15,563 nucleotides of DNA from Candidatus Thorarchaeota archaeon (GCA_048884785.1 JBHLQM010000022.1:1-15563); one strand, 5' to 3'; counted from the first letter of the stretch, positions 25 through 15,563 are shown. Numbers and translations: made by a program. Notes: generated by a model not told the origin, from the letters alone.

Positions 25-3000
25 TCAATAGATACCACGGGGGAAGTCTTCAGATAGCACTCTCTCTAAACAATGCACGAGCTGGTCAGCATTATTCCTG
101 GTAAAGACCATGGGGGGTTTTATTTTCAGGACATTATGATAGGTTCCATCAACGCTCATCAAGACTCCGAGTTCTCTCATCCTGTTCACAATATACAATG
201 CTTCATCTCTTGCTGGAGTCAAGTTTTCCGCATTCGCAACTACCAACTCGATTCCAATGAAAAGACCAATCCCACGAACATCTCCTATTGTCAAGTGTTT
301 TTCTTTTAGTTTGAGAATCTCTCCTATCAAATATTCTCCAACAGTAAGTGCATTCTCTTGAAGTTTCTCACGCCTGATAACATCAAGAACTGCAAGACCA
401 GCGGCGCAAGAGACTGGATTGCCTCCAGTAGTACTGAAGAACTCCATTCCATTATTGAATGACTCGGCTATCTCAGAAGTTGTTACCACTGCGCCAAGAG
501 GGTGTCCATTTCCAATTGCTTTGCCCATTGTTACTATGTCTGGAATCACACCCTGAGTTTCAAATCCCCAGAAGTGCGTACCCGTCCGACCAAACCCGAT
601 CTGCACTTCATCTGCAATGCAAACTCCGCCAGCATCTCGAACATGCGAATAAACATGTTTGAGATAGCCATCAGGCAAAACAATCTGTCCGGCACAGCTC
701 ATAAGAGGCTCACACAGAAAGGCTGCAATAGGATGATTCCGATCTGCGATAGTTCGAATGGCGGTTCTCACATCTTCTCCATAATTTGCCCCGACATTCA
801 ATTCTGTCTTCTTGAAAGGCCCTCTATAAACATCTGGAGTAGGAACTGACTCGACATTGGCCGGTTTCCCCGCGCCACCAGGTCCATCATGCTTGTAGGG
901 ACTCAAATCTATTAGTGAGCCAGTGTTTCCATGGTAGGCCCCGTCAATCACAATGAAACCATCTCGTTTCGTATGAGCCCGGGCCAGCCTAAGCGCTAGT
1001 TCATTGGCTTCGCTCCCACTATTCACAAAGAAGCAAACACTGAGTGAATCGGGCAGGGTTGAACAGAGAGCTTCAGCATATCTGACAAGATTTTCATGGA
1101 GGTATCTGGTGTTGGTGTTCAATACCTTAGATTGCTTTTGAATTGCCTTTACTACATCAGGGTGAGAATGCCCAACATGAGGCACATTATTCACAGAATC
1201 CAGATAGGGTCTTCCGTCTTCATCGTAGAGATACTGCATATATCCTCTCACAATCTTGAGGGGTTTTCTGTAGGACACACTAAGATTTCTCCCCATATGC
1301 TCATGTCGTGAATGAATAATCTCATCCATGGTCATTTTTTCAGGTGGGAAGCGATTCAAAGGTATTCCGAGAATCAGATTAGGATCCGGGCACAGATTGG
1401 TCCAGAGGTTTCTCTGACTTGTCCAGCAAACACCATAATAATCGCCAGAAAAGTCGAGCATATCCAGAATAATCTGGAAATGAAGATGCGGGGGCCAACC
1501 TCCGTTCTCAGGATATTGTCCAACATCAGCAAGTTCCTGTCCACAGGAAATATGTTGACCAACCTCCAGGCGCGCAATTGACTCTTTTGAGAGATGGCCG
1601 TATAGTGTGTAGAACTTCAATCCATTAGGGATTCCGTGTTCGAGAACAATAGTGGGTCCATTATCATACGGGAGGTCATTGTTCTTGAAAGAGTGGACAA
1701 TCCCCTCCAATGGTGCGTAAATTTTGGTTCCTTCTCTAGAAAACAGATCAACGGCAATATGTACCGTTCTAGACTCATCACTGATGCCAGGAGTTGAGTA
1801 CTGAGGACCTGCATAAATCATCCTGGCTTCATTATATCTCCCGATACCAACCTTTGCCTGGTCTTCCTCTAGTTTGGCATTAACAATGCGTGTAAAAACA
1901 TCGATATCTGTCACATCGGAGGGTATTGAATAGTCAGAACTTCCAACGCTCAAGTCGAGTATTGTGGTTGGGATCTGATCCCAAGAGCTACCCAGAATGT
2001 GAGCAAACTGATCCTGGTTGCTTTCTATCCATTCAACAAGGGCTGAGCTTTCGGGATGAGGGGAAAGGCCGCAAACCGAACGAAATGCATACCAAGCCTG
2101 CCTATGATTGTAGGCTCTAAATCGCATTAGGACATTCCAGGCAGGAGCTTCGGAGATTCTCAAATACTCATTATCTGGCTCTAATGTACTTTGATATGCT
2201 GATATACAAACACTCGCAGCTAATCGCATACATATCAGCGGAAAGAGCAACTGAATCTCGTCTTCTGTCAAGGGATACAGTTTGTGGTACCCAGCAACAA
2301 CCTGCAAAGCAGCCGCCATTGGATCCGATTTGCCTAATATGGCGTATGCAGTAGCTATGGCTATCTCAAACACTGTTGCAGTATACACCATATCACCGAA
2401 GTCGAGAATGCCAAAGCTTCTCTTTTCATCGGACCAAGCATTATTCACCAGGATATTGTAATCATTTGCATCATTATAGACTACACTCTGCCTAAGGTCA
2501 GTAATCCTAGGAAGGACCTGATCTTCAAATAGACTGTTAATGTAATTGACAATCTCTCTTCGTGTTTCGTCAGTGATAAGACTCCGATACTCTGCTACCG
2601 CCTTAGGGGCATTTTGAAGGTCCCAGTAGAAGTCTCGATGGGCCGCAGGATGGTCAAATCCTTCTAAGCCTTTACTTAACATCCCCATAGTTTCCCCAAA
2701 GTCATGAAGTAGCTTCGGAGTATGGGGATTCACCTTTGCTAGAACTCGGCCCTCGATGTATGAGAAGACGCGTGTAAAGTGAGGCTGACCAATGTCATCG
2801 ATAGTTTCTATGATGTCCTTCCCATTCTGAGATAAAACAACACGAGGAACTGAAAGCGAGGGCGCATGATCTTTGAGATGTGTAAGGGCTTGATTTTGCG
2901 CTTCCAGATTCTCGCGAACCTCTGAGGTGGCTGATATCTTCAGAACAAATTTCAGACCTGCATCCGTCTGAATGAGAAAATTGCGGTCGCGTTCGCTGGG

Positions 3001-3099
3001 CAATTCATTGATTGTTCCTGAAATGCCATAATATCGTGAAGCAATCTCCAATGCATGGTCCAGTGTAAAGGGAGGCCTCGAATTGTCCTTTGATGACAT
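25..3099 (-). CDS. Three-domain fusion: aminoglycoside-phosphotransferase/hydroxylysine-kinase-like domain + M23 metallopeptidase-like domain + class-III PLP aminotransferase/phospho-lyase (AGXT2L/PHYKPL-like)
   Basis: 1024-aa ORF. Kinase motifs: [23 protein letters not shown] (Brenner-type), GILDFGD (aa ~1-340). M23 motifs: HIAVD (H447/D451), LYGHLS, PHLHFQ (aa ~440-580). Class-III PLP motifs: [60 protein letters not shown] (PLP lysine). Confidence 0.92.
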
Positions 3100-4302: not shown

Positions 4303-4863
4303 TCACTCTTCTTCTGAATCATATTTCAGTGAGAATCTATGTTCAATCCAACTTGAAACATCAACACCACTAGGGCTATTAGGCCTAGCACCTTTGCTGG
4401 GATTCTCGCGTCTTCGTCTTTCCATCTCCTCAGAAAAGTCCTTCACTACAAGTATGCTGCCATCCTGAATCTGTAAGTCAATCACTTTTCTGAAGGCGAT
4501 TGCGCGCTGGAAACCCATGTGGACATACATCTCGGGAATGAAATCCTTGGCAAGCATAATTGAACCTGTGAAATGAGTCTTCAAGCGAAGGCCTTGGTAT
4601 CCAAATTTGAAGAGATCTTCTATTGGTTCTGGTTGTACACCGTTGATGGGCTTTGGATCGTTGACATTTATCTTCATGGCGTTAAGAAGCAATTCCCCAT
4701 CCACACAATCGTAGTACATGATATAGCCCCTCCAACATGCAGTGCACGTAGAGTAGGCCTTCATTCCAAAATCGCTCGGCTCATAGAAACCCTCTCCATC
4801 CCTGCCAATGAGGAAGTAGACCTCCCCTTCATACTTAAACTCGTCTGCCATCTGTGCGGTCAT
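4303..4863 (-). CDS. Conserved hypothetical protein (MTAQxxD...CTACWRGY type)
   Basis: 186-aa ORF co-oriented with its neighbours, with globular composition. The N-terminal MTAQ..D...Y.G..Y and TACWRGY motifs resemble an uncharacterised prokaryotic family (from recall, not searched). Confidence 0.8.
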   Translation of the reverse strand: MTAQMADEFKYEGEVYFLIGRDGEGFYEPSDFGMKAYSTCTACWRGYIMYYDCVDGELLLNAMKINVNDPKPINGVQPEPIEDLFKFGYQGLRLKTHFTGSIMLAKDFIPEMYVHMGFQRAIAFRKVIDLQIQDGSILVVKDFSEEMERRRRENPSKGARPNSPSGVDVSSWIEHRFSLKYDSEEE

Positions 4864-6841: not shown

Positions 6842-6843
6842 AA

Positions 6844-6887
6844 TGAGTTGCCTCTCCTGCCTCGGTCCTGCAGGTGTAGGCAATTCA
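6844..6887 (+). terminator. Strong stem-loop immediately after the glnA stop (terminator, stability element or part of a structured RNA)
   Basis: TGAGTTGCCT (6844-6853) pairs with AGGCAATTCA (6878-6887, one G-U), plus CCTGC (6856-6860) with GCAGG (6870-6874) and a 9-nt loop. There is no U-tract, so the function is uncertain. Confidence 0.4.
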
Positions 6888-6981
6888 ACTGCCTCTTCGA
6901 ATGTCTTCGATAAATCGAACAACTAGATTCCAGATTATCTTATATTATGATGAAATAGATTTGGACTGACCAAAGGGACCG

Positions 6982-7008
6982 TACTAGTCTGAACTATGTA
7001 GACTAGTA
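6982..7008. repeat. Perfect 9-bp inverted repeat upstream of the giant gene
   Basis: TACTAGTCT (6982-6990), 9-nt spacer, AGACTAGTA (7000-7008). It extends with bulges via ACCG/CGGT and AAGG/CCTT to about 6973-7023. Confidence 0.8.
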
Positions 7009-7049
7009 GCTCGGTAGTTCCTTGAAGTTTTCATAAAGAGGCACCTATA

Positions 7050-10000
7050 ATGCGAGCCAGCCGTGAAGCCCTAATGATTCTGTGTTTTGTTACTCTGCTA
7101 ATTCTCCCAGGTGTTTTTTCAAACTACGATGGAACACCATTCATGCCAACCATCGATACACGGTTGGATGGGAATAATCAAGGAACATTGGAAACTCCTC
7201 CAAGTATGCAAAATATGTATACAATGGCAGCAATACCATCATCAACAACAGGATCAGGAATGCTCCTTGGCATCAAGGAGTTTGCCAATGGAACATATCC
7301 TGCAAGAATTGCCTGGGCCAATGAGTCAAGCACTTATTATCCTCAGACTTTTGATATTCCATCAGGATGGTACACAACTTCAATCACGGCAATAAGCTCG
7401 CAAATGTATCATCTTACTGACTGGATCTCAAATGGGGAATTTACCTCTTCAGCCGACCCATGGATATATGATGATAGTGGAGACACAGTTGGTGTTGTTT
7501 CAGGAGCCTACGAGATTGGAGGGTATATATCGATCACTAGAGTGTCTGGTGGAAAGGTCAGATATGACTATCGTGGATCTTGGAATCAGTCAGTGTCTGT
7601 TACTGAAGGAGGAACAGCATCAGCAACACTCAATGTGACCTATAAAATCGATACATCAAGCGGTACAAATGGTCAAAATGCACAACCCTACTTGTATGTC
7701 AATGGAACTGTTTGGGAACTCCCCACTGGTGGCCAAAGATTCTCAGTGAATCAGGATTGGACAACATACTCTGTCGATTTGCCGCTAGACACATTCACGT
7801 TCCCAGGCACTCTGGAGGTGTCGCTCGGAATACAGGGATGGGCTGAAACACAATTCCAAACAACGGGAGTTCTCTCTATGGATAATGTCAGCCTGACACT
7901 CAGGACTTCAAGACTGTCCGAGGTGGTTAATTTGAGAGCAAGAGACACTGACCAGACTTCCAACCAGGAACCATTTGTAACAGGCCCAGGAGGAAAAGGA
8001 TACGCCACATTTAGCGGCAACTGGTCTGACGATGTTACCCTCGAATTTCTTTCAAATGAAACAGGCACCGAATTTACACTTCAATTATTTATGGAACTCC
8101 AGAAAAACAATAAACTGGATGCAAACACATACTCCGTGTCCAATGGCACTGATGTAATATGGAATTCAGCATTCACTGCTCGTGAAATGGCATTTCCATT
8201 CACCTATTATTACTTCAATTTAACGGCTCCTGATGATTGGATTCTGTCAACTGTATATGATGCATATAATGACCTACAATTATCTGGAACCACCTATTAC
8301 AATGCTACATTCTATCCTACAGATGGAGTCTTGGTATGCAATGTCTATGGTACTGGAGTTAGTGGCACTCCACATTATGGTACGTGGGCAATAAGCAGCA
8401 CAGCTCCAAACTATGGAGATTCTATCTCTTTTATGGGAGATTCAGGAGGCAGTTGGACTGAGTTATCAAACTACTATCCTTACTCGCCGCTGAGAGCAGA
8501 TTTAGAATTCACAGATGGCTTGTCAAATCCGCCCACAACTGGAGGCACAAGTGGTATCAAATTCTACGATGTTGAAGGACAACTCATCTATAGTGAAACA
8601 GGAAAATCACTCGATGTTTTTGGACAGACCACATATCAGAATGGAACAGGATCTGCAAACATAACCATCTTGCCAAACTGGCTGGCTGGACCTGTTACTG
8701 CGCTGGCAGCATGGTCGAATGGAACTGCAGTTGGCGAGATAAGAAAACAATTCTACATTTTCCATCATACTGAGTTAGAGATTGAAGCAGCTACTTATTC
8801 AGCATTCCGAGGAGATACTATCTCTGTGAGGGTCAAATATGTTGATTCTGAAACAGGTTTAGGGATTGCTGGTGCAAATCTCAACTATGCCTGGCTCTAT
8901 GGTTCAGACAATATGGGCTATGCAGGAAATGGATGGTATGCAGGCTATGTTGATACATCAGTTGCCGTGATTGGAGGCTACCCTGTCACGGTTAATGCCA
9001 CTAAGGATTACTATGATTTCGCAGAAACAACTGGCATCACCATTGAGATACAGGAACGCACAACTCTATACTCTCCAAAGAACCTTCAAACGCCCACCAC
9101 AGACTATGAGATTGCTTGGGGCAACTCCAAGACAATTTACTTAGCATATGAAGATACAATCGCAATGAATCCGGATACAATGACCGCAAATCCAGGAAGT
9201 CCGAGTAGTCCTGATGTTACATATGCATACACCTCCAATAACGTGTATACTACTGTGAGCAGCGCTGGTAACTCCATGTCCCTAACTATTGAAACAGATG
9301 TCGATCCGTACTCATTCCTAGTCGCTGATTTAACTACACTGACTTTCAAACTAGAGGGCAAGTTCAGTGTTGCCGTCAGTTCAGGCTCAGTCTATGCCTA
9401 CAACTACACAGCCGGTAACTGGGTTCTTGTTATTAGCTCCTATTCTCCCACAATTGACACAACACTCACCTGGAAGACCACCCATCCATCTGATTTCATT
9501 TCAGGAGAAGGCATTGTCAAAGCAAGAGTAAATGCTACTCATACTTCAGCCTTCACCTATAGTCTAGATCTCTTTGACTTTGTAGCTGGACGCCCCATAA
9601 ATAATGCTGTTCCAGGAGTTTCCATCACATCAAATTGGCCCGAGCAATCCGTAGTAGGAACTCAGGTGGGTCCCACCTATAACTCACTCTTGAAGATCTG
9701 GGAAGTGAACCTCAATACAAAGGATGTCACTCCTGGTGAATATACAGTTCTGATTCAGGCCTCTGCGACAGGGCACCAGGAAAAAGTGCTGGAGCTAACC
9801 ATTACTGTGCGAGCACATCACAGTCGTGTTAGTGTAGTTCCGCCAAGTGAAACACCTTGGGGATGGATGACATGGGTGAATATCTCGTTTGAGGACACAG
9901 ATAACTCATCAATAATAATCTCTGAAGGAAATCTGACCTCCATTGTAATTGATTCGCCTTTTGGCTCTCAGATATTCACAATATCAAACTGGACTTATAG

Positions 10001-13000
10001 TCAGTCAACTGGTTTGGCCACAGTTGCGTTCTGGCTTGATACACGTCAGTGGACGACTGACTCATACTCCTTGACAGTGAATGTAATCACCAGTGGCTCT
10101 GGGCTCTCAAAGTTCTTTGATGATAGCTCAAGCGTCCTCCAGATTACCATTCGCCCTCATGATATTGGAATTACTGCAAATCCACCAACCCAGACACCTT
10201 GGGGATGGGATACAAATGTAAGTGTGATTCTCAGTGATTTGGACAATTCTTCATTGTTGGTCAATCCAGCAAACATAACGTCAATCACTGTCGCAGGACA
10301 AATCTTTACATCAGCAGATTGGACCTATGCAAATGGAGCTTTCAGCTTCTTTGTTGATACATCAAGCTGGGCTGTATCATCACAGGCGTATACAGTTATT
10401 GTGACTTGCTCCGATACACCTGCAAGATTCTATAATAATCGTCAGAGTAATGTCTTGATCACAATTCGAGAACACTCGTTATCAGTTTCAGCTGCAACCG
10501 TAACAAGCACACCATGGAGTTGGTGGACTAATGTTTCTGTCACTCTGATAGACTCCGATAATTCAAGTATCATAGTTTCAGAAATGAATGTCACACAAAT
10601 CGTAATTGCAGGACAGGTATTCACCTCTGCAGAGTGGGTAGCTGACTCAGGTGTATTCTATGTATTGGTAGACTCCTCATCATGGCCAATTGGAACCTCA
10701 AGTCGTCAGGTAACAGTTACAACAAGTGTATCCCCGAGTCGATTCTACTACAATGGTATCAGTTCCGTTTCAGTACAGATTCGAGCTCACCTGCTCGGCG
10801 TATCAGCATCACCACCAACTCCAACACCATGGAGTTGGATGACAACAGTCACTATTACACTGCAAGATTTAGACAATCTTTCTCTTACTGTTAGTGAAGC
10901 CAACATAACACAGGTGCAAATCGGAATTCAGGTTTTCACAGCATCGAGCTGGAGCTATGACACTGGTGTAATTACTATTCTCTTTGATACTCGCAATTGG
11001 GCAATTGGCTCCGGATCCTATCAGGTCAGTGTGACAACCACATCAGCGCCTGTGAAAGCTTACTCAAATGGAGTTTCAAGTGTTACTGTGACTATTCGAG
11101 CGCATAACATTGGAATTTCCTTAATACCCCCGGCATCCACACCTTGGAGCTGGAATACTGATGTTTCCTTTACACTTATCGACCTAGACAATACTAGTTT
11201 GAGTGTCAACGAGGCAAATATCACTCAGGTTGCTGTTGCAGGTCAGATATTTACAGCCTCCAACTGGTCATATTCATCTGGGACATTCACATGCATTGTG
11301 GATACTTCTAATTGGGTAATCGGAAGTGCATCATATGGTATTTCACTTACAACTTCAACTGCTGGTTTCAAGTATTATGGCGATTCTTCTGCAACTGTCC
11401 TAATTCGAATAGTCAGCCACGGTTTGGTCGTCGACGCAATCAGACCTCCGGCAACGCCTTACTCTGATGATACAACGGTTTCAATCAGAGTAATAGACCT
11501 GAATAACGAATCGCTGATAGTATCTGAGAATAATATCACTCAGATAGATATCGGTGGACAAATCTTCACTTCAGCATCTTGGTCGTATTCTGCAGGAGAG
11601 TTCTTAGTTGTTCTGGATACTGATACTTGGCCATTGGGCACATATTCACTAACCGTATCTGTTTCATCTGCAGGTTCTGGAAACACAAAATTCTATGCGG
11701 CGTCTACGGGAAGACTTACTGTTGACATTAGAGAGCGCTATACCGAAGCATATGCCCCGACACCGGATCCGGTACCTTCAGGGAATAATCTGGTTTTCAA
11801 TATGGAGTTCAGAGATAGAGATGCATCAGGAATTCTAGTCAATGCAACCTGGATCTATCTTAATGGAACAGATTTGACCGAGGGAGTTGATTTCTGGATT
11901 TCTTGGATTAGCGAGGGCTATTATCAGGTATCAATGGTCACAACTGGACTCTCACTTGGCGACAATATCGTTCTAGTCACTCTGACAAGAAATAACTACG
12001 AGAATGCCACAACAACTGTACGGTTTAGGATCAGAGTCACTGATACAGAGGCAATTGCATCAGGATACAGATTCAATGTTCCTGTTGGCTCTAATGCAAT
12101 ATTTACCGTACAATTCAACGATGTTGACCATAGTGTTGGAATTGCGGCAGACACAATCACTTCTAATACCACTTTAGGATGGTCATATCTAAATCAAGGT
12201 GGTGGACTCTACCAGATTACTGTAGTAACAACGGATGCCACATCTTTAGCCAACTATCCTATTCGATTCAATTTCACTAAATCTGGGTATGAAGATGCCT
12301 ATGTGATAATTGTAATCTCCGTTGTCACACACGATTCCTATCTCTCATTTGATGAGGGCGTAATTCCAACTGATATAGCGTCGAACATCAGTGTCTATCT
12401 CTTCTATGAAGACATTAGTCTGGGTGTTGGTATAGCAAATGACACGCAGGAGATTGCTGTTTCAGTGTGGTTTAGCCATTCAAGTGGAACCGCAACTGGT
12501 TGGGCTCAAATCTTCGTGCGGGAAAACATGGCATTGGGAATCGGACACTATTTGATTGAGATTCCAGCCAGCCAATTTGGAGGACTCTACACTGTTTCAT
12601 TCACTGCATTCTTCAACTGGACTGGCATTGCAAAATATGAGAGTCTCAATCGAATGTTCTCTGTAGAACTTCAAGGCACTGACACGGATCTAAGTGTTTC
12701 AATTGCGCCTCAGGCAATTTATTATGGCGATTTGACTAACTTTACACTCTACTACGAAGCGACTCAATCCTCAACAGGAGTAGAGAATTCAACTGGTAAT
12801 GTATGGGCATTTGCATTAGTTATTGGTCAGTCAATTGATCCAAACGAATTCCAAATCACATGGGTTGGCGAGGGACTATACCGATTCATTCTGAATTCAT
12901 CATTGTTTGCTTCGGATGGTTCATTTACAATCAGGGCATTCCTGAATTGGACTCCTACAGAATCTCCATATTATGAGAATCAAACACTTTCTTTGACTGT

Positions 13001-15563
13001 CACAATTCTCTACAGGACAACTCTTCTAGATGTTGTTCCTCCACAGAATACAGCGTATGATGAGGATGCAACATTCACCTTTGCTTTCTACGACTCTCCA
13101 ACAAACACAATCATCCTGAATTCATCTAAGATGTTTGTTCAGCTGAATAACATAGGCATATCATACACACTTGGATACAATGCCGGGACATGGACTGTAA
13201 TTGTTGATACGGCCTCAATTGGAAGCACTGGAACAATAGCCCTGCAGCTAAATGTAACTTGGGTTGGTGCCCCCTTCTATCAGAACCAGACTAGGTTAGT
13301 ATCGCTGACTGTGACTATGCGTCCTACTCAGCTCACATATACACCGCCAACTCCAACATTCTTCAATTCGAATGTTTCTCTAACTCTCACTTACATTGAC
13401 CTGATTGATGATAGTAGTTCTGCAATGTTCGGAGGTACGCTTGTGCTAACAAGCGGTGCCTTAGTATTGACAGGTTACTATGACATCATTGATAATAGTG
13501 ATGGCACATATGATGTCATCCTAAATACGACCGCCTTCCTTGAACCCGGGGCGTATGTAATCACCGCTACGATGACATATGGTGGCTCACGATTCTGTAA
13601 TAATGCCCAAGCTTCATTCACTCTGCGAGTCTTGTATCGTGCAATTCTCGCCACTGCGGATCCAGTGGGAAGCACGGCTTATCAGCAAGATATTGAGATT
13701 CTGCTTCATTTAACTGATGGAGAAACAGCTGGTGATGTTACTAACTCGACCGGCGCAGTACGTATTCGGATAGGGGATCAGAATGCCACCTCACCTGCCT
13801 TGCAGGGTTTGAATGTCGTTTGGACTCCAGGAACCGATACCTATTCAGTAAGTGTGGCAAATACTCTCCCGATAGGCACGCATGTACTCTATTTGAATGT
13901 CAGCTATGACTATACATCACCATATTATGGCTACCGACTGGTGAAACTTACATTCACAATCAGAAAACATTCAACTGAGCTGCAGCTCTCAGAACCTGCT
14001 GCAGGAATAGGATTCGGATTAAACACAACCTTCCAGCTTTCATACATCGATTTGGATACTGGACTGCCCATCACAGGGGCTTCATTGACGGTATCAAATG
14101 CATCCCTAGCAGGATATTGGTCAATTGTAGAGGTCGGAGGAAATCTGTATGAAGTTCGCATTAATACAACTGCATTCCTAGCAATTGGTACATATTGGGT
14201 TGTAATGAATACACAAAATACAGGGGCTTATGCAAATTACCAAGATACATCAATCTATGTCAGAGTCTATGTACGTGAGAGATACACAACTCTCTCATAT
14301 GATGCGGTAGGAAGCGTAGGATACACTGATGATGTAGTAATCACAGTGTATTATAGTGATTCAGACCTTGGAAATGCACCTATAACAAATGCTACGAATG
14401 CACTCAGACTGACCACAAATCAGAGTACATACTCAGTAACCTATGGCATTGCACCCGGGTCCTTCGTAATCACCATGCCTGCAAATCAATTCGTACCATT
14501 TGCTTATTCAACCGTATCAATAACCATGCTTTACGAAGGAGTGCCATTCTACCAGAATCAGACCATCACAGTTAGATTCCAGATCACTGGTACCTCAACA
14601 GAATTTGCATGGGACCCAATCGATCCAGTTCCATATGGCAACTATGCAAATGTCACCTTTTACTGGGGAGATGTAGATTCAGGAACTCCTGTTCTTTGTG
14701 CTTTAGGTGGTGATACAGCAATTACTGTAGTGTCAATCACACAACCAGGCTTGGATACTTCGAATACAACCATTATGAATATAGTACAGGGCAGCAATGT
14801 AGGTGCATATGCCACCTTCTTCCTCCTTTTGAACACCAGTTTTCTTGATGGATTTGGAACATTCGAGTTCAGAATCACAATAGATTGGACTGACTCAGGA
14901 GCTGCTCCTTACTACGAGGATCAGAATAACAAACTGGTTACTATAGTTGTTAGGATTAGAGACACTGCAGTACCTCAGATACTAGTAGACTCAGTTTATT
15001 ATGGTGAGGATGCTACAATTAGACTCCAATATGTTGACATGGACAACTCAGGTCAACTAATTACAGGTGCAAACCTGAACATTGCAGTCTTGGACGGACT
15101 TTCGTACACAGTTAATCCAACGCCTGTTGGAGGCTTTTATGAAGTCTATGTCGTGACAGAGGGCACAGGTCTCTTAGGCGCAGTTAGAATTAACATGACG
15201 ATACAATGGTACGGAACACCATATTACGAGAATCAGACCAGTGTTGCTGCAATCCTGACTATCAACATGAAAATCGCCACTATGGAAGTCACATATCCAG
15301 ATGTGACTCCATATCTTGACAATGTGACCTTCTTCATCCACCTTCGAGATAGCACTACACTGCAATATATCAATAATAATGAAAGCTTCATTTCAGCCAT
15401 TTTCGTAGTTCCAAGTATTGGCTCCACTCCAACAATAACCTATGTCATTGCAAGTGACGGAACATATAAGGTGACATTCAATTCGTCCATTCTTTCACAA
15501 GTGGGTACCTATGTCGTCACAGTGACATTCGACCACTCGGGATCATCACCCTACTACAGTGTA
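7050..15563 (+). CDS. Giant secreted/cell-surface glycoprotein with about 20 tandem Ig-like beta-sandwich domains (3'-partial, at least 2838 aa)
   Basis: ATG at 7050. Hand translation shows no stop to the window end (...GSSPYYSV), which explains its absence from the ORF track. The N-terminus MRASREALMILCFVTLLILPGVFS has a basic n-region and hydrophobic h-region. The protein is T/S/V/Y/G-rich and K/C-poor, with a recurring unit [RH]xTxL...YG...Y.D.D.G.PI..A...G.Y.V..[ND]T....G.Y.......PYY.N.T. Confidence 0.95.
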   Translation, partial: MRASREALMILCFVTLLILPGVFSNYDGTPFMPTIDTRLDGNNQGTLETPPSMQNMYTMAAIPSSTTGSGMLLGIKEFANGTYPARIAWANESSTYYPQTFDIPSGWYTTSITAISSQMYHLTDWISNGEFTSSADPWIYDDSGDTVGVVSGAYEIGGYISITRVSGGKVRYDYRGSWNQSVSVTEGGTASATLNVTYKIDTSSGTNGQNAQPYLYVNGTVWELPTGGQRFSVNQDWTTYSVDLPLDTFTFPGTLEVSLGIQGWAETQFQTTGVLSMDNVSLTLRTSRLSEVVNLRARDTDQTSNQEPFVTGPGGKGYATFSGNWSDDVTLEFLSNETGTEFTLQLFMELQKNNKLDANTYSVSNGTDVIWNSAFTAREMAFPFTYYYFNLTAPDDWILSTVYDAYNDLQLSGTTYYNATFYPTDGVLVCNVYGTGVSGTPHYGTWAISSTAPNYGDSISFMGDSGGSWTELSNYYPYSPLRADLEFTDGLSNPPTTGGTSGIKFYDVEGQLIYSETGKSLDVFGQTTYQNGTGSANITILPNWLAGPVTALAAWSNGTAVGEIRKQFYIFHHTELEIEAATYSAFRGDTISVRVKYVDSETGLGIAGANLNYAWLYGSDNMGYAGNGWYAGYVDTSVAVIGGYPVTVNATKDYYDFAETTGITIEIQERTTLYSPKNLQTPTTDYEIAWGNSKTIYLAYEDTIAMNPDTMTANPGSPSSPDVTYAYTSNNVYTTVSSAGNSMSLTIETDVDPYSFLVADLTTLTFKLEGKFSVAVSSGSVYAYNYTAGNWVLVISSYSPTIDTTLTWKTTHPSDFISGEGIVKARVNATHTSAFTYSLDLFDFVAGRPINNAVPGVSITSNWPEQSVVGTQVGPTYNSLLKIWEVNLNTKDVTPGEYTVLIQASATGHQEKVLELTITVRAHHSRVSVVPPSETPWGWMTWVNISFEDTDNSSIIISEGNLTSIVIDSPFGSQIFTISNWTYSQSTGLATVAFWLDTRQWTTDSYSLTVNVITSGSGLSKFFDDSSSVLQITIRPHDIGITANPPTQTPWGWDTNVSVILSDLDNSSLLVNPANITSITVAGQIFTSADWTYANGAFSFFVDTSSWAVSSQAYTVIVTCSDTPARFYNNRQSNVLITIREHSLSVSAATVTSTPWSWWTNVSVTLIDSDNSSIIVSEMNVTQIVIAGQVFTSAEWVADSGVFYVLVDSSSWPIGTSSRQVTVTTSVSPSRFYYNGISSVSVQIRAHLLGVSASPPTPTPWSWMTTVTITLQDLDNLSLTVSEANITQVQIGIQVFTASSWSYDTGVITILFDTRNWAIGSGSYQVSVTTTSAPVKAYSNGVSSVTVTIRAHNIGISLIPPASTPWSWNTDVSFTLIDLDNTSLSVNEANITQVAVAGQIFTASNWSYSSGTFTCIVDTSNWVIGSASYGISLTTSTAGFKYYGDSSATVLIRIVSHGLVVDAIRPPATPYSDDTTVSIRVIDLNNESLIVSENNITQIDIGGQIFTSASWSYSAGEFLVVLDTDTWPLGTYSLTVSVSSAGSGNTKFYAASTGRLTVDIRERYTEAYAPTPDPVPSGNNLVFNMEFRDRDASGILVNATWIYLNGTDLTEGVDFWISWISEGYYQVSMVTTGLSLGDNIVLVTLTRNNYENATTTVRFRIRVTDTEAIASGYRFNVPVGSNAIFTVQFNDVDHSVGIAADTITSNTTLGWSYLNQGGGLYQITVVTTDATSLANYPIRFNFTKSGYEDAYVIIVISVVTHDSYLSFDEGVIPTDIASNISVYLFYEDISLGVGIANDTQEIAVSVWFSHSSGTATGWAQIFVRENMALGIGHYLIEIPASQFGGLYTVSFTAFFNWTGIAKYESLNRMFSVELQGTDTDLSVSIAPQAIYYGDLTNFTLYYEATQSSTGVENSTGNVWAFALVIGQSIDPNEFQITWVGEGLYRFILNSSLFASDGSFTIRAFLNWTPTESPYYENQTLSLTVTILYRTTLLDVVPPQNTAYDEDATFTFAFYDSPTNTIILNSSKMFVQLNNIGISYTLGYNAGTWTVIVDTASIGSTGTIALQLNVTWVGAPFYQNQTRLVSLTVTMRPTQLTYTPPTPTFFNSNVSLTLTYIDLIDDSSSAMFGGTLVLTSGALVLTGYYDIIDNSDGTYDVILNTTAFLEPGAYVITATMTYGGSRFCNNAQASFTLRVLYRAILATADPVGSTAYQQDIEILLHLTDGETAGDVTNSTGAVRIRIGDQNATSPALQGLNVVWTPGTDTYSVSVANTLPIGTHVLYLNVSYDYTSPYYGYRLVKLTFTIRKHSTELQLSEPAAGIGFGLNTTFQLSYIDLDTGLPITGASLTVSNASLAGYWSIVEVGGNLYEVRINTTAFLAIGTYWVVMNTQNTGAYANYQDTSIYVRVYVRERYTTLSYDAVGSVGYTDDVVITVYYSDSDLGNAPITNATNALRLTTNQSTYSVTYGIAPGSFVITMPANQFVPFAYSTVSITMLYEGVPFYQNQTITVRFQITGTSTEFAWDPIDPVPYGNYANVTFYWGDVDSGTPVLCALGGDTAITVVSITQPGLDTSNTTIMNIVQGSNVGAYATFFLLLNTSFLDGFGTFEFRITIDWTDSGAAPYYEDQNNKLVTIVVRIRDTAVPQILVDSVYYGEDATIRLQYVDMDNSGQLITGANLNIAVLDGLSYTVNPTPVGGFYEVYVVTEGTGLLGAVRINMTIQWYGTPYYENQTSVAAILTINMKIATMEVTYPDVTPYLDNVTFFIHLRDSTTLQYINNNESFISAIFVVPSIGSTPTITYVIASDGTYKVTFNSSILSQVGTYVVTVTFDHSGSSPYYSV
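8763..15563 (+). repeat. Array of about 20 diverged Ig-like protein repeats
   Basis: Approximate unit starts: 8763, 9057, 9816, 10158, 10473, 10788, 11103, 11418, 11736, 12039, 12330, 12678, 13014, 13320, 13638, 13968, 14280, 14592, 14958, 15270. Confidence 0.8.
9816..11735 (+). repeat. Six closely related ~105-aa TPWxW-type repeats
   Basis: The TP[WY] motif starts at 9852, 10194, 10509, 10824, 11139 and 11454 (spacing 342, 315, 315, 315, 315 bp). Consensus: R.H...PP..TPW.W.T.VS..L.D.DN.S..VSE.NITQI..AGQIFT...W.Y..G.F...DT..W. Confidence 0.92.

Follow-up and report, generated by a model that had tools for sequence, protein, structure and literature searches.

A giant Ig-repeat gene of a Thorarchaeota archaeon encodes a predicted surface fibre whose membrane-and-tail module marks a protein family nearly restricted to Asgard archaea

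A reading frame of 8.5 kb that runs off the end of the DNA analysed raises the question whether it belongs to a real gene and, if so, how so large a protein would be anchored and what it might do at the cell surface. The window, by which we mean the whole stretch of 15,563 nucleotides analysed here (G000:C22:1-15563), is part of a 46.8-kb scaffold of a MAG (3.6 Mb, 158 contigs, 91% complete, 5.4% contamination). In a six-frame ORF listing with open ends, 7050..15563 (+) forms a single frame of 2838 codons with an ATG start and an open 3' end, which is far beyond chance, and its translation contains zero stops, as expected from an earlier note on this DNA that had claimed an 8.5-kb open frame for a protein of more than 2800 aa. 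The note had also stated rightly that the frame was absent from the ORF track: the frame hits a run of 100 N (C22:15564-15663) directly after the window end, a scaffold gap beyond which the contig continues, and the lister skips frames leaving the source.

We joined the gene model across the gap; that the two parts meet at such a gap, in a MAG, counts to some extent against the reading of the protein given below. The post-gap frame is open for 1535 codons up to a stop at C22:20269-20271 and shows the same repeat style, followed by a hydrophobic helix of 24-28 residues, a basic stretch and about 185 charged helical residues. By BLASTP, the window part corresponds to residues 1-2835 and the post-gap part to residues 3067-4602 of a full-length 4602-aa orthologue (P0004), and three other full-length orthologues give an equivalent placement, so that about 231 aa are hidden in the gap and the whole protein has about 4600 aa. 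The orthologous frames or proteins are 4602, 4606, 4610, 4615 and 4618 aa long; at 45-75% identity they are collinear with the giant protein and stop-free, showing that the frame is a real coding gene, and its base composition is that of the flanks. We reject an assembly or non-coding artefact on the strength of these collinear orthologues and of the conserved synteny. The anchor and any cytoplasmic domain had been placed outside the window, and past the gap the stop, a TM helix and a 185-aa tail were all found; the suggestion that the host is an Asgard archaeon agrees with matches named Thorarchaeota and with the synteny shared with other Thorarchaeia genomes. The features of the complete model are as follows.

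6842..7049 (+), intergenic leader from the glutamine synthetase gene to the giant gene, read from the sequence
7050..7121 (+), putative signal peptide, aa 1-24, with a basic n-region, a hydrophobic core of ~17 residues and VFS/N
7347..7919 (+), head module 1, ~aa 100-290, a putative jelly-roll like those of CBMs and galactose-binding domains
7920..8759 (+), head middle, aa 291-570, beta-rich, pLDDT mostly <50, 53-67% identical in orthologues
8760..9059 (+), first Ig-like unit, aa 571-670
9147..9599 (+), head module 2, ~aa 700-850, a second putative jelly-roll of CBM type, set between Ig units
9831..11750 (+), six Ig-like units of 105 aa that closely resemble one another, aa 928-1567, with the motif TPWSW...D-x-D-N-S-S (HMM E 1e-25 to 1e-29)
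11751..15563 (+), twelve additional Ig-like units of divergent sequence, aa 1568-2838, broken off at the scaffold gap
~19642-19725 of C22 (+), predicted TM helix, from the post-gap translation
~19726-20268 of C22 (+), predicted cytoplasmic tail of 185 aa, from the post-gap translation, with the stop at 20269-20271

Counting back from the ATG, the leader has AGAGG at 9-13 nt and an A/T-rich TTATATTA at about 100 nt, which we infer to be a candidate RBS and a candidate promoter element, respectively. The protein starts with MRASRE, about 17 hydrophobic residues and VFS/N. This N-terminus looks like a Sec signal peptide, orthologues keep the layout at an identity of only 17-23% over the first 60 aa, and aa 3-22 were modelled as a helix by AF2; neither a lipobox nor a class-III signal was found there. 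The signal peptide claimed earlier is thus seen in the sequence as a Sec-type layout. The ectodomain carries 98 N-X-S/T sequons (1 per 42 aa, 2.4 per 100 aa) compared with 50 +/- 6 in composition-preserving shuffles, and the other long ORFs of the genome have 0.58 per 100 aa; the cytoplasmic tail has zero. Its composition (12.7% Thr, 9.8% Ser, 1.2% Lys, 0.2% Cys) is accompanied by a tail with 14.8% Glu and 8.2% Lys, and a basic stretch directly follows the TM helix. The sequon bias, the compositions, the signal-like N-terminus and the basic residues after the helix together support a type-I protein with N-out, C-in topology that would be heavily N-glycosylated. N-glycosylation at N-X-S/T has been documented for one Asgard archaeon, and the S-layer proteins of Sulfolobales have about one N-glycosylation site per 30-40 residues (PMC11284389).

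The N-terminal part of the ectodomain does not look like the rest. The first unit recognised by the repeat HMM starts after about 580 aa, in good agreement with the non-repetitive head of about 570 aa described before, and the head region as a whole, including the second module inserted between Ig units, covers about 930 aa. An AF2 model of aa 1-1040, for which the alignment had no more than 9 close homologues, was of low quality overall (pLDDT 52.7) but all-beta, and was locally usable at aa 190-350 (pLDDT 53-79) and aa 740-860 (69-88). Foldseek with this model returned only generic multi-Ig chains (TM ~0.1), while a VIA search of the same mostly low-confidence model resolved two jelly-roll modules; module 2 matched the Bacteroides thetaiotaomicron protein SGBP-B and classical CBM4/16/22 modules, which is modest fold evidence. 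As a separate line of evidence, the language-model (ESM) features of aa 60-360 pointed only to CBM_6, CBM_35, CBM_4_9 and galactose-binding-like clusters (scores 0.85-0.89, a range rated as leads). At E <= 0.1, no CBM model of Pfam matched aa 1-600 or aa 581-930 and no Pfam family at all matched aa 1-600; the sole Pfam match in aa 581-930 was InlK_D3 (E 0.025, 15.1 bits, below the cut-off of 25). A PDB sequence search with the head profile gave nothing significant, and the head middle (aa 291-570) had no Pfam or PDB sequence match. We consider it probable from these models that the head carries two CBM-like lectin modules, which would fit ligand-binding domains held off the cell, and the modules provide defined constructs for glycan-binding tests.

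The stalk consists of tandem Ig-like units, and their number appears to be fixed. An HMM iterated from one unit counted 20 units between aa 581 and 2837, before the gap, which is the approximate number given in the earlier note, and 13 further units after it, from 15664 to about 19640. Since each of five orthologues that are only 45-65% identical has exactly 35 units, the 33 detected here imply that two lie within the gap. Within aa 928-1567 adjacent units share 40-57% identity, compared with about 20% for the other units, and nowhere else is the identity between orthologues as low as in this stretch (40-59%). Conservation between orthologues is otherwise even along the length (head 53-78%, stalk 40-70%, tail 51-71%), and only the first 60 residues vary freely. 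The unit number is constant as well, and each unit resembles the orthologous unit far more than the units beside it. The persistence of 35 evenly conserved units despite this divergence indicates, at the level of sequence, purifying selection on every domain and on the rod length. An Ig-like domain is about 4 nm long when extended, so that 35 units would make a rod of about 140 nm. The stalk is longer than the visible part, for which about 80 nm had been reckoned earlier.

The repeats fold as beta-sandwiches in the models, as had been supposed. We modelled the last 340 residues with AF2 from an alignment of 18 orthologues and paralogues (mean pLDDT 77.7), and the final repeat was an eight-strand sandwich with pLDDT ~90. 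Foldseek with the Ig+TM model found titin, palladin, myotilin and Rib domains (target TM 0.6-0.69). In fold searches the sandwich of the repeat superposes on invasin/intimin domains (invasin 1cwv, intimin 1f02, InvE 5n40 at 20% identity, and the RTX adhesin tetra-repeat 6xi1), and its best matches include S-layer Ig domains (Sap, SbsC and Nitrosopumilus maritimus). The expectation that the repeat family might have no curated model was also borne out. No Pfam model was above threshold on the 2838-aa part, where the best was Filamin (E 0.57); the Filamin/ABP280 repeat PF00630 (cut-off 26.9 bits) was not reached, Big_1 (PF02369) and Invasin_D3 (PF09134) gave no match at E <= 1, and NCBIfam had no match for the protein. 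Paralogues in the same genome have sub-threshold Pfam matches to Invasin_D3, Big_1, Filamin and CarboxypepD_reg; in the paralogue on C73, Invasin_D3 reaches 31 bits (cut-off 33) and Big_1 26.7 bits (cut-off 34.9).

From the observed architecture, Ig fold, topology indicators, family and distribution, we propose that the protein is a long-reach, adhesin- or receptor-like fibre that binds glycans and whose tail docks a shared intracellular partner, a reading that we hold to be reasonably probable. The Sec signal peptide would export the N-terminus, and the distal head with its two CBM-like jelly-rolls would sit on a rod of 35 Ig/filamin-like domains, which a single C-terminal TM helix would anchor while the 185-aa helical tail would stay in the cytoplasm. 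The fibre might bind glycans on partner cells, on a matrix or on particulate polysaccharide, and the tail would probably dock one conserved partner inside the cell that the whole family shares. In cryo-ET of a cultured Lokiarchaeon, no ordered S-layer was seen and there were many long protruding surface proteins, some of them bridging protrusions (PMC9834061); the giant fibre would fit this picture, but only by analogy, as that organism belongs to a different class. Long Asgard surface proteins are thought to mediate cell-cell contacts relevant to models of eukaryogenesis (PMC9834061), and the giant gene offers a concrete gene model for one such surface molecule of Thorarchaeia.

The ligand could also be purely nutritional, the CBM-like head tethering the cell to detrital polysaccharide with no cell-cell role, much as cellulosome anchoring scaffoldins and the surface glycan-binding proteins of Bacteroides do. 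The matches of head module 2 to SGBP-B and CBM4/16/22 modules and the CBM families among the ESM features agree with this model, yet the fold evidence is modest and no glycoside hydrolase or transporter gene adjoins the giant gene, whose neighbours are GS, Lrp, SCP2 and PanB. Substrate capture is moreover a sub-case of the adhesin reading, from which it differs in the ligand alone, and the present data fit partner cells and detrital polysaccharide alike. We regard an exclusively nutritional role as unlikely, though the best placed of the alternatives.

Giant Ig-repeat surface proteins are already known in bacteria and archaea (PMC11573180, PMC10619420, PMC12863079). We compared the glycan-binding fibre proposed here with the invasin/intimin Big_1 family, RTX adhesins (Aeromonas/Marinomonas ice-binding type), the Mobiluncus 51-Ig adhesin and Apilactobacillus Giant1-5. 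Like these bacterial adhesins, the giant protein has tens of tandem Ig-like beta-sandwiches and distal ligand-binding modules, which are putative here. Unlike them, it is archaeal and sequon-rich, has no Pfam Ig model above threshold, and ends in a predicted C-terminal TM helix with a 185-aa cytoplasmic domain instead of an outer-membrane beta-barrel, a T1SS retention module or a sortase/LPXTG link. Its 35 units are fixed in number and individually conserved, whereas copy number varies in many bacterial repeat adhesins.

The genomic surroundings of the giant gene are those of housekeeping functions. Upstream are an APH/M23/aminotransferase gene, an SDR, a 186-aa ORF, Lrp/AsnC and glutamine synthetase, and downstream SCP2, PanB, a UFM1-ligase-like protein, a P-type ATPase and a subtilase. 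In two genomes of the same genus (G018 and G020) the giant gene occupies the same GS-SCP2 slot. In a third (G015, 92% complete) SCP2 follows GS after 72 bp and the giant gene is absent from the locus, as it is in a genome of another genus (G003, 98% complete). The head was found strongly in only about 11 of the 87 genomes of the class, across 6 of 17 genera. This presence and absence at the locus and the patchy head make the giant gene an accessory, presence/absence-variable member of a core family. The flanking genes are conserved with or without it between them, and no operon partner was found among the conserved neighbours.

The gene at 25-3099 (-) of the window encodes a 1024-aa fusion of an APH-like kinase, an M23 peptidase domain and a class-III aminotransferase, a combination that looks unusual and is kept as one gene in two same-genus genomes at 57-59% identity. 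Between this gene and Lrp, the 186-aa ORF at 4303-4863 (-) has no Pfam match and is conserved in G018 and G015 (50-53% identity). Further downstream, a 651-aa protein (C22:22081-24036 (-), equal to L002:6418-8373) has repeated matches to E3 UFM1-protein ligase 1 (PF09743, E 3e-13) and is possibly a eukaryote-signature protein; its gene adjoins that of the P-type ATPase in G018 too.

The accessory distribution also bears on whether the protein is a structural one, an S-layer-like or stalk protein comparable to SlaB or to a glycocalyx sheath that sets the thickness of the envelope and binds no ligand. Its sequon density matches that of archaeal S-layer glycoproteins, the fold matches of the repeat include the S-layer Ig domains named above, it has a predicted C-terminal membrane anchor, and an invariant length of 35 units would suit a spacer or ruler. 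An archaeal S-layer glycoprotein would be expected to be a universal and essential envelope component of its lineage, in one or few copies, while this gene is lacking at the G015 and G003 loci and its head occurs in about 11/87 genomes, and we disfavour the structural role because of this distribution. A 4600-aa rod with CBM-like tips is unlike lattice-forming subunits as well, and cultured Asgard archaea appear to be without S-layers (PMC9834061, PMC11284389). Compared with the stalk or anchor protein SlaB of Sulfolobales and with the S-layer Ig-domain proteins (N. maritimus, Sap and SbsC), the giant protein is 10-fold longer, is accessory rather than universal, has a large conserved tail and comes without a lattice-forming partner gene. 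A structural role is thus quite unlikely in our judgement, and the ligand-binding fibre remains the reading that we prefer.

What sets the giant protein apart is its C-terminal end. An alignment of 18 orthologues and paralogues has 24 invariant and 9 nearly invariant positions in the region after the TM helix, including S-[VI]-P-K-x-[IV]-R-x-[LIM]-N...K-G-x-[IV]-P next to the membrane, P-E-x(3)-L-L, and M-[KR]-x-S-E-[RQ]-x(2)-F-[LVI]-x-E-V-[ILV]-x-Q-E, while the ectodomains of the same 18 members diverged far more. The giant protein has the C-terminal TM helix and then all of these tail motifs, and so belongs to the family. A TM-plus-tail query matched 106 of 301 Asgard genomes in a phylum-wide sample; in the taxonomic family of the host 73 of 76 genomes carry the tail in 2-9 copies each, and every copy forms the C-terminal end of an open frame, these frames being about 2500-6560 aa long. 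Five other Asgard families gave weaker matches (E 1e-6 to 1e-13), and several large Asgard families gave none (0/68, 0/28 and 0/21). Against 5.8 billion proteins the tail profile had 89 matches, nearly all named Thorarchaeota, the other labels being one each of Sifarchaeia, Odinarchaeota and Hermodarchaeota and three of Promethearchaeota; 88 of the 89 are unnamed or 'hypothetical' and one is an 'Ig-like domain-containing protein'. Against 1.84 billion cluster representatives from all life there were 143 matches. Judged by these searches, the TM-plus-tail module defines a multigene family nearly restricted to Asgard archaea, and a profile of it could serve to annotate giant ORFs now called 'hypothetical', of which there are hundreds and which MAG assemblies usually leave in pieces.

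In the AF2 model the tail consists of a juxtamembrane amphipathic helix and six further helices (pLDDT ~70-83), the last three of which are short (residues 292-304, 309-319 and 324-339 of the 340-residue model). The last 215 aa have no Pfam match at E <= 0.1, the tail profile has no significant sequence relative in the PDB, the ESM Atlas gave no usable match, and no enzymatic or known signalling domain was found in the tail. Of the tail, only the short helical unit formed by the final ~55 residues is also found, singly or in repeats, in unrelated, bacterial-looking proteins. No fold relative or partner of the tail was recognised, the match lists of the fold searches being filled by the Ig domain, and the neighbouring genes suggest no partner; the conserved tail itself, however, is a defined bait for an intracellular partner.

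Would the tail do more than dock, and relay ligand binding or force across the membrane to the cytoskeleton, to ubiquitin/ESCRT or to trafficking machinery? The tail is more conserved across paralogues than the ectodomains, is modelled as an amphipathic helix followed by helices ending in three short ones, and is confined to Asgard archaea, all of which would suit such a coupling receptor. By sequence, the three-helix end is nevertheless not recognisable as a UBA-like domain: UBA (PF00627) and CUE had no match in the 18 tails even at E <= 10, and the commonest sub-threshold match, in 8 of the 18, was the generic three-helix domain RecX_HTH1. As the two halves of the tail are unrelated by profile comparison (hhalign probability 4%), the terminal module recurs in bacterial-looking proteins and no signalling domain is present, we consider a transmembrane coupling receptor very improbable. 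In a broader form, the TM-plus-tail proteins might be Asgard-specific adhesion receptors that couple length-defined, glycan-binding ectodomains to the actin cytoskeleton, ESCRT/ubiquitin or trafficking for contact with partner cells, which we think rather unlikely; if the coupling were true, prokaryotes would have in them a functional counterpart of the single-pass adhesion receptors of eukaryotes. Like eukaryotic IgCAMs of the basigin/neuroplastin type, the giant protein has a type-I layout with an Ig ectodomain, one TM helix and a conserved tail, and the Foldseek list for the Ig+TM model includes basigin (7dce_B) and 6a69_B, a chain of a P-type ATPase complex. There is however no sequence homology, the likeness in fold is that of a generic Ig sandwich, and no known adaptor-binding tail is related to the one found here; the resemblance is an analogy of layout only.

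A survey of archaeal 'huge proteins' described types with N-terminal Laminin_G_3 and halomucin, listed 3 proteins of >5000 aa in Thorarchaeota, and stated that it is not understood what proteins of the LamG-type architecture do (PMC11573180). The giant protein resembles the Laminin_G_3 proteins as a very large, uncharacterised surface protein with a lectin-type N-terminal domain, putative in our case, but it is below the 5000-aa cut-off and has no Laminin_G_3 match, and the TM-plus-tail module is not described in that survey (PMC11573180). In our literature searches we found no description of the TM-plus-tail family, of the uncurated head and repeat family, or of a fixed 35-unit design. These three are new, above all the nearly Asgard-restricted TM-plus-tail module.

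The host genome contains at least four further family members, on C51, C124, C127 and C132. The tails on C124:1-3465 and C51:23356-26103 have one to four extra terminal units of ~55 aa, or an acidic/proline-rich insert before the unit, so that tail length varies downstream of the invariant core. On G000:C127:1-4771 (-) two members stand in tandem, both truncated where the contig stops: 4166-4771 holds the end of one with its tail, and next to it comes the start of another, which has a putative signal peptide, a sub-threshold match to DUF2341 (E 0.0039) and then the same Ig repeats. Tandem arrays whose members measure about 2590 or about 2900 aa, spaced by ~7.7 kb, are found in many Thorarchaeia genomes (for example G060:C22:5919-30105 and G003:C4:89381-97749), and their lengths are tightly clustered at 2583-2620 and 2882-2916 aa, suggesting that the tandem members form length classes or pairs.
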